A DNA stretch of 38,778 nt from a virus (taxonomy: Duplodnaviria > Caudoviricetes), in the IMG/VR virus record IMGVR_UViG_3300012347_000380, positions 1 through 38,778 of that record. One strand, given 5' to 3'. Each line of letters starts with the position of its first letter. Position 1 is the stretch's first letter. Below are positions 1 through 11,394 of the stretch, in pieces. The notes beneath the pieces are model-generated. The model did not search any database and had not been told where the DNA came from. It saw nothing but the letters and a program-made list of their open reading frames with translations. The position numbers and the translations under genes were made by a program.

Positions 1-77
1 AATCCGGCGTGAACGAGAACAGTAACGGCAACGCGCTGGCGTTCATTTGCCAATCATTCAACCGTGCCAATCCATGA
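1..77 (+). CDS. 3' end of a gene truncated by the window start (possibly a ParB-like N-terminal domain protein)
   Basis: Open frame from nt 3 reads SGVNENSNGNALAFICQSFNRANP*, with TGA at 75-77 overlapping the next ATG (74). The NENSNGNAL tail resembles, from recall, phage ParB-domain proteins found upstream of mom-like genes. Confidence 0.45.
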   Translation, partial: SGVNENSNGNALAFICQSFNRANP

Positions 78-202
78 GCGCTAAGGACATCATCATCAAG
101 CCAATCAAACGCGGTGACAGCATGGGTGGCCATGCGCCGGGCCTCCAGCCCGGAGAAGGCGGTTCGACTCCGACCTCACCGCTCCAGCCGCCTGACGCAT
201 GA
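74..202 (+). pseudogene. 42-aa ORF, probable internally deleted Mom-family adenine-modification gene remnant
   Basis: Reads MSAKDIIIKPI-KRGDSMGGHAPGLQPGEGGSTPTSPLQPPDA*, coupled by ATGA overlaps at both ends (74-77, 199-202). The N- and C-terminal peptides resemble, from recall, the two ends of phage Mom-like proteins, with no catalytic core between them. Confidence 0.5.
111..186 (+). tRNA. atypical tRNA-Gly(TCC)-like RNA
   Basis: Acceptor GCGGTGA/TCACCGC, D-stem GCAT/ATGC, anticodon stem CCGGG/CCCGG with loop CCTCCAG (TCC at 144-146), T-loop TTCGACT, T-stem GGCGG/CCG(A)CC with a bulged A, discriminator T and encoded CCA; 76 nt. Confidence 0.8.
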
Positions 203-828
203 GTAAGTCCGACACCAAGTCCCCAACCGTTGACGTCGGCACGCTCGCCAAGTTGTTTAACGTTACCGAAGTATGGATTCAACGACTGGCAAAAGAAGGT
301 GTCATCGTAAAGGCCACGCATGGCAAGTATGAGCTGTGGCCGTCAATCAAAGGGTTCATCAAGCACCTTCAAGATCGCAAGACCAACCAGTGGGACGGGG
401 ACGAAGACGACGGGTATGAAGAGCACCGGGCACGGCTCACGAAGGCAAAGGCCGACATTGCCGAGATCGAAGCAGACCTCCGCAAGGCACAGGTCCACGA
501 CGCCGGGGCCGTCATGGCCGTGTGGGCCGACATGATTTCCAACGCGAAGGCGAAACTGTTGTCGATGCCGACGACGCTCGCCGGTCGCGTCCACGGCGAA
601 GAATCCCTCGAAGCAATCCGGAACCTCATCGAGGAGGCCGTCACCCAAGCACTCAACGAACTCGCCGAATATGATCCGAGCCTCGCTACCGACCGATACG
701 TTCAGAGTCATAGCGGCTCTGTGGAAGCCGCCACCGAAATGGACGACCTCGGAATGGGCGGACAACCGCCGCCGCCTAAGCAGCGAAAGCAGCGCAGAGC
801 CCGGGCAATGGAGGACGAGCCGGGCTGA
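199..828 (+). CDS. terS: terminase small subunit (lambda Nu1-like)
   Basis: N-terminal winged HTH (LAKLFNVTEVWIQRLAKEGVI), coiled coil (ERARLTKAKAD-like segment), and position directly before TerL. Confidence 0.85.
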   Translation: MSKSDTKSPTVDVGTLAKLFNVTEVWIQRLAKEGVIVKATHGKYELWPSIKGFIKHLQDRKTNQWDGDEDDGYEEHRARLTKAKADIAEIEADLRKAQVHDAGAVMAVWADMISNAKAKLLSMPTTLAGRVHGEESLEAIRNLIEEAVTQALNELAEYDPSLATDRYVQSHSGSVEAATEMDDLGMGGQPPPPKQRKQRRARAMEDEPG

Positions 829-2635
829 GTATCAGCGCGGGATCATGGACGCTCCCCACGAACCGGGGGTGAAGCGGACCATCGTCATGTCGTCGGCTCA
901 GGTCGGCAAGACCGAGATCGTCAACAACACGCTCGGGTATCACATCGACCACGACCCGTGCCCTACGCTGGTCGTCCAGCCGACAATCGACATGGCCGAG
1001 ACGTGGTCCAAAGACCGGCTCGCCCCGATGATCCGCGACACTCCCGCCGTCCGCGAGAAGGTCAAGGGCGTGAAGTCTCGCGACTCGGGCAACACGATCC
1101 TCCACAAGACTTTCCCGGGTGGTCACGTCACAGCCGCAGGCGCAAACGCCCCGGCCTCGCTCGCATCGCGACCGGTGCGCCTGGTGCTCTGCGACGAGAT
1201 CGACCGTTACCCTCCATCGGCCGGCACTGAAGGCGACCCGGTCAAGCTCGCCGAGAAGCGGGCGAACACGTTCTGGAACCGGAAGATCATCCTCGTCTCG
1301 ACTCCCACCGTGAAGGGATCGAGCCGGATCGAATCCGAGTGGGAGCTGTCCGACAAGCGGCGGTTTCACGTGCCCTGCCCGCGATGCCAGACCGAGCACG
1401 TCCTGTCATGGGGCAACGTCCGTTTCGAGAAGGAGAACCCATCCGCCGCCCGGATGATTTGCCCGTCCTGCGATTGGGAGTTCTCGAACGCTCAGAAGAA
1501 CGCGGCGGTCCGTCGCGGCCGGTGGATCGCGACCGCGCCGTTCAAGGGCATCGCAGGGTTCCACATCAACGAGCTCTACTCGCCGTGGAAGACCATTGCC
1601 GAGGTCGTCGAGGATTTCCTCGAAGCGAAGAACGACCCGCTGAAGCTCCAGGTATGGGTGAACACGTCGCTCGGCGAAACGTGGGAAGGTGGGGCCGAGG
1701 TCGTCACCGAACACGAACTCATGGAGCGGGTGGAGAACTACGCCGCCGAGGTTCCGGCCCGTGGTTTGTTCCTCACCATCGGTGCCGACGTCCAGCCGAA
1801 CCGGATCGAGATGGAGGTCGTCGCATGGGGATCAGGCGAGGAATCTTGGAGCATCGACTACCACGTGATCGAGGGAGACGTGGACATTCCCGAGGGATCG
1901 CCGAACAGCCCGTGGAACGACTTCACCGACTACGTCCGGAAGCGGTGGCGTCACGAGAGCGGGGTGGACCTTGCCGTTTCCTACACGTTCATCGACTCGG
2001 GAGGAACGGATGGCGCCACGCAGTCGGTCTACAACTACGTGAAGCGACATCGGGGAGACCGCATCTTTGCGATCAAGGGCCGGGGCGGTGATGGACTGCC
2101 CATCGTCGGGCCACCGAACCGGAAGCGGTCCGGCAAGGCGAAGCGCCCGGTGGACCTCTACATCATAGGCACCGACACGACGAAGAGCGTGGTCATGCGT
2201 CGCCTGAAGCAGGCCGACCCCGGCCCGGGGTATTGCCACTTCCCGGCAGGCCGCGACGTCGAGTGGTTCCGCCAGCTCACCGCTGAACGCCCGGTCACGA
2301 AGTTCGTGAAGGGGTTCCGCAAGACCACATTCGAGAAGCCAGACAAGGACCGGCGCAACGAGGCGTTTGACTGCCGGTGCTACGCGTTTGCAGCGTTTGT
2401 GATGGCCGCTCCTCAGCTCGACAAGATCGCATACCGGATCAAAAAGCAGGCCGCAGAGAAGCCCGCTCCAGCTCCAGCGAAGCCGCGCACGCCCGGTGAA
2501 GTGGTGGCCGCGCTGCATGAGGTCCTGAAACCAGCACCCGACAAAACCACGCTCGACCCAACCCCACCCCCCGAGGATAGTCCGAAGAAGCCGCGACGGG
2601 CCAAACGACGCGGAGGCTTCATCCGAAACTGGTGA
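671..2635 (+). CDS. terL: terminase large subunit (lambda GpA family)
   Basis: SEWAD...SSAEPGQWRT N-terminus, Walker A SAQVGKT, Walker B LCDEID, STPT motif, CPRC/CPSC zinc site and C-terminal RNEAFDC nuclease motif. Confidence 0.95.
   Translation: MIRASLPTDTFRVIAALWKPPPKWTTSEWADNRRRLSSESSAEPGQWRTSRAEYQRGIMDAPHEPGVKRTIVMSSAQVGKTEIVNNTLGYHIDHDPCPTLVVQPTIDMAETWSKDRLAPMIRDTPAVREKVKGVKSRDSGNTILHKTFPGGHVTAAGANAPASLASRPVRLVLCDEIDRYPPSAGTEGDPVKLAEKRANTFWNRKIILVSTPTVKGSSRIESEWELSDKRRFHVPCPRCQTEHVLSWGNVRFEKENPSAARMICPSCDWEFSNAQKNAAVRRGRWIATAPFKGIAGFHINELYSPWKTIAEVVEDFLEAKNDPLKLQVWVNTSLGETWEGGAEVVTEHELMERVENYAAEVPARGLFLTIGADVQPNRIEMEVVAWGSGEESWSIDYHVIEGDVDIPEGSPNSPWNDFTDYVRKRWRHESGVDLAVSYTFIDSGGTDGATQSVYNYVKRHRGDRIFAIKGRGGDGLPIVGPPNRKRSGKAKRPVDLYIIGTDTTKSVVMRRLKQADPGPGYCHFPAGRDVEWFRQLTAERPVTKFVKGFRKTTFEKPDKDRRNEAFDCRCYAFAAFVMAAPQLDKIAYRIKKQAAEKPAPAPAKPRTPGEVVAALHEVLKPAPDKTTLDPTPPPEDSPKKPRRAKRRGGFIRNW
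2540..2583 (+). promoter_or_regulatory. late-promoter motif copy 1 (inside terL 3' end)
   Basis: GACAAAACCACGCTCGACC at 2540-2558, matching three intergenic copies; the -10 position is divergent (GATAGT). Confidence 0.55.
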
Positions 2636-4707: not shown

Positions 4708-4994
4708 GAACTCCGAATCCCTCTCAGGCTCACGCCTCAATCTCCACGACCGGCACCGCCTCGACGCTGGCGACGCTCGGCTACACCATCCATGCGAAGA
4801 CCGCGACCTTGCTCGTGCAGGCAGTCGGAGGCGACGTGCGCATGACATTGAACGGAACAAACCCGACGGCGTCGCTCGGGATTAAGATCGCCGACGGCAC
4901 CAGCATTGAACTTGGGGTAGACGAAGCCAACGTCGCAAAGTTCATCACGGGGGCATCCTCGCCGAAGCTCGAAATCGCCGCTTACGTTCTATGA
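4704..4994 (+). CDS. hypothetical small beta-rich virion-associated protein
   Basis: 96 aa, ATGA-coupled to the portal gene and to the next gene. Confidence 0.6.
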   Translation: MRTPNPSQAHASISTTGTASTLATLGYTIHAKTATLLVQAVGGDVRMTLNGTNPTASLGIKIADGTSIELGVDEANVAKFITGASSPKLEIAAYVL

Positions 4995-6304
4995 TTTTCC
5001 AGCCTCCAATCTTCCGGCCCGGGCTATTGCAATCGCCGCTCGCAGTTGGGCGTATCGCGGCTGACTTAGCATTTAATCCGTTGAGCTTGGTTCCGTTTGC
5101 TTGGTATGACTCAAGCAAAGCCACGTCTCTTTATGATGCGACAACAGGCGGGAGCGTCGTGGCTGCAAACGGAACAGTTCGTCGATGGGAGGACCTATCA
5201 GGGAATTCACGGCACCTCACGCAAGCTGGTAACGCTCCGACACTGACGGAAACCAGCGGGCTGCGTGGCGTTCTTTTCGATGGTGCGGATGACGCCATCG
5301 GTCGCGCTGCAACGGCCTCCGCTTTGCCCGTTACAGTTTATTGCTGTTGGTCGCCGGTAAGTCACACGATCAACGATTCAGTTTGGGACCTTAGAACCAG
5401 CGGAGCGGGGCCTATTTTCCGGCAAGCCGGATCGGCACAAATGGCGGTTAATGGGTCGACGTTATGCGGTCGAGTTCCCCTTTCAATCCCATCGCACGGA
5501 ACACACAAAACCACCGGGACCACGATTGCAGCAAAGATCAATCGTGGCGCGTTCATTTCAGTCACCCAAGCCAACTCTAACGGTTCCGTTATTTGGATGG
5601 CGTCAAGCGGCGGAAGCGCAAGTTTCGGGAATGTCCGCATCCACGAAATGATTTTAGTGTCTGGATCAACGCCGTCCGACACCACTGATGCCGCCGTTGC
5701 CGCATATTTTGAGCGGAAATGGGGCATGACCCGCCCGCGCCTCATGGTCGATGGGAACTCTCTAAGCTCCGGCGGGACTTCGCTTCCCGTGGCCGACGTA
5801 TGGCCAACAATTCTTGCTCCGGAAATCGCCGATTGGGACGTAGTGAATTGGGCAGTCCAAGGCCAAAACATTACCTCCATGGCATCGGATGCGGCGATGG
5901 AATTTGGACGCCAACCAATCCCAACCCGTGCAAAAAATGTCCTCGTTGCGTGGGAGGGCCCAAACCAAATCTCGTCGGGAGCTTCAGCCAATGGAACAGC
6001 CGCCGCAGCCGCGATGAAGTCTTACTGCCAAGCTCGCCAGGCAGAGGGTTACTATGTCATTTGCGCGACCATGCTACCCGCGAACGTAGTCAGCGAGGCA
6101 AATTACAACGCCTTTAATACGGCATTGCGAGACACCCCTGCGAGCTATTGCAACGCGCTGGTCGACCTAGCCGCCAACGCAACAATTGGCGTATGGGGCT
6201 CGCAAACAAATTTGACCTACTACAACGCGGATGCCCTTCATCTAACTGCTGCCGGGCAACTAATTGTGAAGGACCTTTTCAAGGCCGCTGTTCTTGCCTC
6301 CTGA
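4991..6304 (+). CDS. LamG/lectin-like N-domain plus SGNH/GDSL hydrolase domain protein
   Basis: WYDSS...VRRWEDLSGNSRHLTQ and VLFDGADD N-domain; SGNH blocks DGNSLS, AVQGQ, WEGPN and DALHLT. Visibly more A/T-rich codon usage than its neighbours. Confidence 0.75.
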   Translation: MIFQPPIFRPGLLQSPLAVGRIAADLAFNPLSLVPFAWYDSSKATSLYDATTGGSVVAANGTVRRWEDLSGNSRHLTQAGNAPTLTETSGLRGVLFDGADDAIGRAATASALPVTVYCCWSPVSHTINDSVWDLRTSGAGPIFRQAGSAQMAVNGSTLCGRVPLSIPSHGTHKTTGTTIAAKINRGAFISVTQANSNGSVIWMASSGGSASFGNVRIHEMILVSGSTPSDTTDAAVAAYFERKWGMTRPRLMVDGNSLSSGGTSLPVADVWPTILAPEIADWDVVNWAVQGQNITSMASDAAMEFGRQPIPTRAKNVLVAWEGPNQISSGASANGTAAAAAMKSYCQARQAEGYYVICATMLPANVVSEANYNAFNTALRDTPASYCNALVDLAANATIGVWGSQTNLTYYNADALHLTAAGQLIVKDLFKAAVLAS

Positions 6305-11318: not shown

Positions 11319-11394
11319 CGTGCGGTCGCCAAGTGGTTAAGGCGCTGGTCTCATAAGCCGGTTACCGATGGTTCGAATCCATCCCGCGCAACCA
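11319..11394 (+). tRNA. tRNA-Met(CAT), initiator-like (C1:A72)
   Basis: Acceptor CGTGCGG/CCGCGCA, D arm GCC-AAGTGGTTAA-GGC, anticodon loop CTCATAA, T arm GATGG-TTCGAAT-CCATC, and ACCA end. Confidence 0.92.

Follow-up and report, generated by a model that had tools for sequence, protein, structure and literature searches.

The question raised by this locus is why a phage should carry an RNA that has the glycine identity bases of a tRNA but lacks features needed for translation, and why that RNA is written into the end of a reading frame of 42 codons. The window, that is, the whole stretch of DNA analysed here, is the complete 38,778-nt viral record IMGVR_UViG_3300012347_000380, a linear, ~90% complete sequence from a temperate, tailed phage with a gpA-type terminase, an integrase, a helicase and, at the far end, a Mor-like gene (Pfam). 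The locus occupies the extreme contig start and is sandwiched by a truncated ParB-like gene and the small terminase gene. The 42-aa ORF at 74-202 and the ATGA overlaps on both its sides (74-77 and 199-202), described in the initial annotation, are present in the sequence. The features of the region are as follows.

1-77, + strand: 3' end of the ParB-like gene (frame-3 translation), truncated by the contig start; its stop TGA at 75-77 overlaps the remnant ATG
74-202, + strand: 42-codon mom remnant consisting of the first 11 and the last 31 codons, fused in frame without the catalytic core
98-107, + strand: deletion junction, one surviving copy of a putative 7-10-nt direct repeat (codons KPI / QPI)
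111-186, + strand: tRNA-Gly(UCC)-like RNA with encoded CCA; 76-nt cloverleaf with C8, G14 and C33 and a one-base T-stem bulge
199-828, + strand: terminase small subunit gene (terS), overlapping the remnant stop and starting 12 nt past the RNA CCA
671-2635, + strand: terminase large subunit gene gpA (terL), Pfam GpA_ATPase and GpA_nuclease

Window positions 1-107 were 92.5% identical to the intact relative L001 (= L006), whose upstream gene matched Pfam ParB_N at E 9.5e-6 (26.0 bits, just below the 26.3 cut-off). A 92% identical cluster member of the terS product bears the name 'phage terminase Nu1 subunit'. The gene order parB-mom-terS-terL is intact in L001 and in L002. In the closest terminase relatives (L306-L308, 85-86% nucleotide identity) the slot upstream of terS is filled, without RNA, by a cassette of a methyltransferase-domain protein (396 aa in L306) and a 143-aa protein with no Pfam match, possibly an alternative DNA-modification module; the mom/RNA module is therefore exchangeable. 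Elsewhere in the window, a tRNA with a CAT anticodon was called tRNA-Met by ARAGORN at 11319-11394, the first acceptor-stem positions pairing imperfectly, and a 437-aa gene with a GDSL/SGNH hydrolase domain was located at 4991-6304, between the portal and capsid genes.

Protein comparison identified 74-202 as derived from a mom gene. All longer homologues of the 42-aa ORF (25/25) were Pfam Mom (PF25680) proteins of 236-276 aa in which the same two ends are collinear and enclose a full Mom domain, as had been proposed from the resemblance of both peptide ends to the ends of Mom-like proteins; one of them, P0002, matched the Mu Mom structure 8bv8 (E 6e-28). The proposed in-frame loss of the catalytic core was likewise borne out in this one assembly: in the alignment ~200-230 codons are missing relative to intact Mom, including the GNAT core with R111/S124/D149, and the 42-aa ORF gave no Pfam match. 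A Mom-core HMM, which detected all seven control loci, found no match anywhere in the contig (~90% of the genome), and in this contig the RNA is thus without a cognate enzyme in the available sequence. The same-length protein search returned no same-size homologue of the 42-aa ORF. The ATGA overlaps were considered as a sign of peptide function and ruled out, since the intact mom of L001 has the identical two overlaps; they are inherited from the intact gene and are uninformative on the function of the 42-aa peptide.

The RNA at 111-186 is built from the following elements, all on the + strand.

111-117 paired with 176-182: acceptor stem, with G1-C72, C2-G71 and G3-C70
120-123 paired with 132-135: D stem
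137-141 paired with 149-153: anticodon stem; loop CC-TCC-AG, with C33 at 143 and TCC at 144-146
158-162 paired with 170-175: T stem, A173 bulged
173: bulged A, between T-stem pairs 50-64 and 51-63 (standard numbering)
183: U73, followed by CCA at 184-186

The full cloverleaf, the GlyRS identity bases and the C8, C33 and bulged A reported in the initial annotation can all be read from the sequence. A feature missing from that description is G14, which replaces A14 beside C8 (position 118). C8 occurs together with G14 in 6 of the 101 distinct copies found by the RNA-first search described below, which suggests a coupled substitution of the U8-A14 tertiary pair. The minimum free energy fold of 111-186 was the cloverleaf (z -2.53; 5/200 shuffles folded as well). 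ARAGORN made no call on 111-186 and Rfam gave a sub-threshold tRNA-clan match only (30.1 bits, E 0.0015). A bulged-cloverleaf rule, drawn up after the element was seen, matched once in the window and in 0 of 200 Markov-resampled windows. Covariance model R1, whose training set includes the window copy, scored it at 79.7 bits. Against L006 the window RNA has 7 differences, 4 of which make up two compensatory pair swaps in the anticodon stem. The TTC T loop and G18G19 are retained. By our numbering, A173 falls among the three T-stem pairs which we take to be those setting EF-Tu affinity. A distant BLASTN search of window 1-210 against cultured phages returned short T-arm matches only.

Relatives of this RNA were sought from both sides of the association with mom. 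The first related-locus scan, with an alignment that included the remnant, returned 2 loci. The RNA-first search, whose degenerate pattern described the acceptor end together with the bulged T arm, covered about half of the viral collection and yielded at least 120 viral loci. A Mom HMM matched in 78 of the 80 loci with long flanks, the two exceptions being the gutted L057 and L017, whose upstream sequence is 49 nt long, and Pfam Mom was found on 66 of 71 submitted in-frame ORFs of at least 53 aa. In the protein-first direction, R1 matched 77 of 78 viral mom loci (best 80 of 585, in a ranking that included the tail) and 71 of 80 loci found in bacterial genomes by the Mom core alone (best 80 of 164), 65 of them at E<=0.001; at 2 of the 9 misses the sequence stops right behind mom. 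Being the best 80 of 585 and of 164, these protein-first sets describe the near clade. The co-occurrence with Mom-family genes that the initial annotation had proposed to check was thus found from either side. Both viral contigs and genomes from many phyla have family copies next to mom. Among cultured phages, a sample of 18 Mom loci spanning the family, drawn from 189 matching records, included one with the RNA nearby, in Psychrobacter phage Y8A, and the RNA is therefore regarded as a branch-specific extra. D108 has no such RNA in its mom locus or genome-wide. Ordinary tRNA-Gly also scores ~36-56 bits with R1, so the alignments, not the scores, bear the argument. ARAGORN made any call on 11 of 130 distinct family copies (tRNA-Gly on 5), and because it mostly misses the family the RNA is largely unannotated.

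Some records deserve mention in their own right. In Psychrobacter phage vB_PmaS_Y8A (OQ059336.1), two tandem, unannotated short-D-arm copies lie between mom and terS (L129, 1656-1796), and a second Mom gene is present near the record end; this phage is a practical test system. Two cultured phages encode tRNA-Gly(UCC) far from mom: that of Aeromonas phage AS-sw (L345) has, by eye, A8 and an irregular T arm, and that of Klebsiella phage RaK2 (L344) an 8-nt T loop. Both may be unlinked donors. Bacillota rows of the genome alignment (e.g. L296, L298 and L270) form a sub-type in which the bulged base is T and the anticodon loop is often of 6 nt; ARAGORN assigns them no amino acid.

Covariation of the stems, proposed as a check in the initial annotation, was found in both protein-first alignments, at ~0.58 against ~0.14 when shuffled. 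In the viral alignment A4 the score was 0.576 (0.138 shuffled), with double changes at 16/21 pairs, and in the genome alignment A7 it was 0.583 (0.144 shuffled), with double changes at 20/21 pairs; both alignments were fitted to R1 and such alignments lean to its structure, and slid structures scored at most 0.11. All four arms covary, the T stem on either side of the bulge. Values are quoted from A4 and A7 because in the ungapped alignment A3 the D arm (39% paired) and the anticodon arm (63% paired) are out of register. In the RNA-first alignment A5 the T stem and acceptor tip were set by the search pattern and those positions were left out. One weak minus-strand match each in L202 and L303 was left out of the base counts and is still in the pair counts and in the 72 genome rows. 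Together with the searches, these alignments demonstrate the structure of the RNA, its family and its linkage to mom.

The placement of the copies bears on what is conserved. Among 84 RNA-first loci, 69 have the RNA inside the mom frame, where it is 5' in 49 and 3' in 20, and 3 have it antisense. Of the genome copies, 35/71 lie wholly past the mom stop codon and others overlap mom in other frames; the farthest downstream copy lies up to 1275 nt after the stop, and tandem copies occur. Because copies lie past the stop, in other frames, antisense and in tandem, selection acts on the RNA, the peptide being incidental. L042 (1414-1559), L087 and L009 have free-standing copies that run opposite to mom or to a gene resembling it. 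The antisense copy of L042 is preceded, at a distance of 13 nt, by a sigma-70 match (12/12) and followed directly by a terminator-like hairpin, which point to a free transcript.

The family keeps some parts of a tRNA-Gly and has lost others. Invariant in 61 distinct viral copies are G1, C2, G3, G71, C72, U73 and C35, with C36 in 60/61. Of these copies, 14 have U33, 4 have U8 and 18 have U55; the base at 34 varies freely, giving ACC in 21. The reported determinants of bacterial GlyRS are G1-C72, C2-G71, C35, C36 and U73 (PMC10464925). The bulge is an A in 61/61 distinct protein-first viral copies, and in the 72 bacterial-genome rows it is A in 46, T in 17, C in 2 and absent in 7. The T loop is TGC/TGT in 30/61 viral and 19/71 genome copies and TTC in the window copy; 15/61 viral copies are without an encoded TCCA end. 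Some family copies have a shrunken D arm, and a D-armless tRNA is described as charged very poorly by one bacterial GlyRS (PMC10464925). All 13 tRNA-Gly genes of five genomes taken as host controls keep U8, U33 and an unbulged 5-bp T stem. Set against an elongator tRNA-Gly, the window RNA has the cloverleaf, CCA, G1-C72, C2-G71, C35, C36 and U73, and it lacks U8, U33 and an uninterrupted 5-bp T stem (C118, C143 and bulged A173).

The join at 98-107 determines how the window copy itself is to be read. In L006 the 7-mer of window 98-104 is present at both deletion ends, 606 nt apart, and codons xPI occur at both sites in 13 of 40 intact homologues; four proteins match the remnant at 27/27 residues (junction through RNA) and all four have xPI at both sites. 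On this basis a direct repeat of 7-10 nt, in frame, was probably present in the parent mom, and the join presumably arose by slippage or recombination at its two copies. L006 contains 28 repeated 7-mers, such a repeat length being not unusual in a 700-nt gene. The junction repeat is in frame and ends 3 nt ahead of the RNA; the frame was therefore kept and the RNA spared with no need for selection. An in-frame join would also maintain translational coupling to the essential terminase. The in-frame join was accordingly ruled out as a sign of selection, the repeat itself being in frame. The proposal that the RNA 'survived', in a selected sense, is not upheld, since the in-frame repeat suffices and the remnant is without decay. 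As neither half shows decay, the mom deletion is recent or artefactual. Because the contig has no Mom enzyme, the window RNA was probably orphaned by a recent deletion between the repeat copies.

Two other loci have lost mom sequence. L057 (element 1501-1569, minus strand) has the N-terminal half of ParB fused, out of frame, with the final ~25 codons of the mom core; ahead of terS its short-D-arm RNA of 69 nt is intact. In L003 (2441-2899) a 5'-type RNA accompanies a mom from which an in-frame loss has removed ~70 internal codons and with them the catalytic motifs. Both records are fragmentary and neither gave a Pfam Mom match. Retention of the RNA in 3/3 gutted loci was rejected as a sign of selection because all, each a single assembly, were found through the RNA, and L091 was rejected as a second deletion of the L003 type, being the same contig as L003.

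The alternative that the join is an assembly or amplification chimera, the true phage mom being intact, is considered unlikely, although several observations fit it. The junction lies ~100 nt from the contig start, the remnant protein P0001 is absent from a 15-billion protein collection and has no same-size homologue, neither half has decayed, and the 33-nt 5' flank occurs exactly in no other viral contig. No reads over the junction were found in the 4 of 7 sequencing runs examined; among the runs listed as matching the locus none was of RNA, and the best DNA run shared 0.26 of its words. Against a chimera, L057 and L003, each also a single assembly, show different losses of the mom core with the RNA intact, and a repeat of 7-10 nt is shorter than usual assembler k-mers.

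The reading preferred here is that in intact relatives the RNA corresponding to 111-186 is probably a non-translating glycine carrier; the host is predicted to charge it and Mom to use it on phage DNA. Late transcription of parB-mom-terS-terL would be followed by excision of the RNA by RNase P and 3' trimming, each transcript giving full Mom or the RNA; alternatively, the RNA would be made from its own promoter. Host GlyRS would charge it via G1-C72, C2-G71, C35, C36 and U73. The T-stem bulge would weaken EF-Tu binding, whose affinity is reported to be determined by three T-stem pairs (PMC3239215), and the loss of U33 and U8 would bar decoding, so that the glycyl-RNA would be left free. Mom would then transfer the glycine to the N6 of DNA adenine ahead of packaging, and restriction enzymes would be blocked. 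For an RNA sited at mom in which only the charging signals are kept, a dedicated donor is the simplest explanation. Against it stand the use of host tRNA-Gly by Mu Mom, the 17/18 cultured-phage Mom loci without the RNA, the lack of Mu's R151 in register and the shrunken D arms of some copies, as well as the copies without TCCA (15/61) and the TTC and G18G19 retained in the window copy.

Other functions would account for parts of the same evidence. Mu mom is toxic, and the RNA, whether charged or uncharged, might act as a decoy: by binding Mom it would restrain the enzyme and so keep down the modification of host DNA or the draw on host Gly-tRNA. Such a role, which we consider distinctly unlikely, would show the same mom linkage and acceptor-stem conservation; the acceptor end is, in a speculation of the Mom authors, read by Mom (PMC13219725), and lysogens could express the antisense stand-alone copies that have a promoter-like site of their own. 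It fits less well with the retention of C35 and C36 while positions 32, 33 and 34 drift, since GlyRS determinants (PMC10464925) are not obviously needed by a pure decoy. The RNA could instead be a cis-acting processing signal at which RNase P or other tRNA nucleases cut the mom-terS mRNA and tune the output of Mom or terminase. Its location in the mom reading frame at 69/84 RNA-first loci (49 5' and 20 3') and the CCA 12 nt before the terS start in the window agree with this, but antisense, tandem and far-downstream copies (to 1275 nt) and a strict glycine identity would be superfluous for a cut site, and the proposal is improbable.

Least probable of all, and largely refuted, is an ordinary or decaying phage tRNA-Gly, or the remnant of an integration site, lying next to mom by chance. 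The full cloverleaf, UCC anticodon and encoded CCA, the integrase of this phage and the tRNA-Gly calls by ARAGORN on 5 of 130 distinct copies are what such an origin would leave; the bulge, however, is conserved and flanked by compensatory changes, U33 and U8 are lost family-wide and kept in 13/13 host controls, 78/80 copies stand beside Mom, and the integrase gene of this contig is 31 kb away. Returning to the donor reading, a broader version of it would be that mobile elements widely encode a translation-proof glycyl-RNA inside the gene of the enzyme that consumes it, one stretch of DNA giving either the enzyme or its co-substrate, and that enzyme-less copies are real, recurrent donor-making alleles served in trans by Mom from a co-resident prophage; this extension is highly speculative and we give it little credence.

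Mom has only recently been shown to take glycine from a charged tRNA, and EF-Tu is expected to compete; competition of EF-Tu for the glycyl-tRNA pool is documented for FmhB (PMC7826273). If the donor reading is true, the escape of a large branch of Mom from this competition would be explained by a phage-encoded glycyl donor that is proof against EF-Tu, and dedicated non-translating tRNAs would extend from cell-wall synthesis to DNA modification. The window locus, as a broken copy, locates the family and says little on function.

A tRNA-Gly-like element inside mom was already known. McMurdie et al. (2011) described a conserved 76-bp tRNA-Gly-like 'pseudo-tRNA' of Dehalococcoides ssrA islands, embedded in a mom homologue within its first 150 bp, and in the text available gave no function for it and no link to Mom chemistry (PMC3146451). 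By description it resembles the window RNA in its 76-nt length, full tRNA-Gly-like fold, NCC anticodon ('DCC') and a mom homologue placed after a ParB-domain gene. It differs in lying within the first 150 bp of an intact gene on a chromosomal island, whereas the window RNA occupies the last codons of a gutted phage gene; the Dehalococcoides-like 5' placement is shared by 49/84 RNA-first loci and the window copy is of the 3' type. In the literature within reach of the search, which left most subscription journals outside it, no paper was found that joins the RNA to Mom chemistry.

That chemistry is known from Mu Mom, which moves glycine from Gly-tRNA-Gly to the N6 of adenine in dsDNA, the Gly-tRNA-dependent formation of 6-NcmdA (Silva et al. 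2026, PMC13219725). Gly-tRNA-Gly is thus a co-substrate of Mu Mom, as stated in the initial annotation, and the enzyme is reported to work with all three E. coli tRNA-Gly isoacceptors (PMC13219725). A keyword search of that paper and the 2023 preprint, of which the main supplement may lie outside the text searched, found no mention of phage-encoded tRNAs. The intact relatives of the window gene are, like Mu Mom, PF25680 members and keep the equivalents of R111, S124 and D149. Differences are that Mu Mom uses host tRNAs, that its close relative D108 is without such an RNA and that the window copy has no catalytic domain. Moreover, R151, essential in Mu Mom, has no equivalent in register in this clade, in which 40/40 intact homologues have D-G/A-T-Q-C in place of the D-E-R-C of D108 Mom, and for this reason the chemistry of the clade is assumed.

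Canonical bacterial tRNA-Gly shares with the window RNA the acceptor identity, NCC anticodon, cloverleaf and CCA; U8, U33 and an unbulged 5-bp T stem are kept in 13/13 canonical genes, and the window RNA has none of the three. A further parallel is provided by the staphylococcal non-proteogenic tRNA-Gly species NP1-NP3, donors for FmhB/FemA/FemB (PMC7826273; PMC3239215). Like them, the window RNA has a UCC anticodon and an altered T arm and would serve a GNAT-fold transferase outside translation. The staphylococcal RNAs are charged by GlyRS yet bound weakly by EF-Tu and inactive in decoding, and the same is predicted for the window RNA from its sequence. The TGC/TGT T loop described for the staphylococcal species (PMC7826273) is found in half of the Mom-linked viral copies, the window copy having TTC. 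The staphylococcal species are chromosomal, restricted to staphylococci and serve a peptidoglycan acceptor, with changes in a T-stem pair and the T loop and no bulge mentioned in the portions available; the Mom-linked RNA, by comparison, is borne by mobile elements and is often written within the gene of its enzyme. It belongs to a real and strongly conserved family that is best filed among the non-translating glycyl-donor tRNAs, represented here by a copy in a broken host gene.
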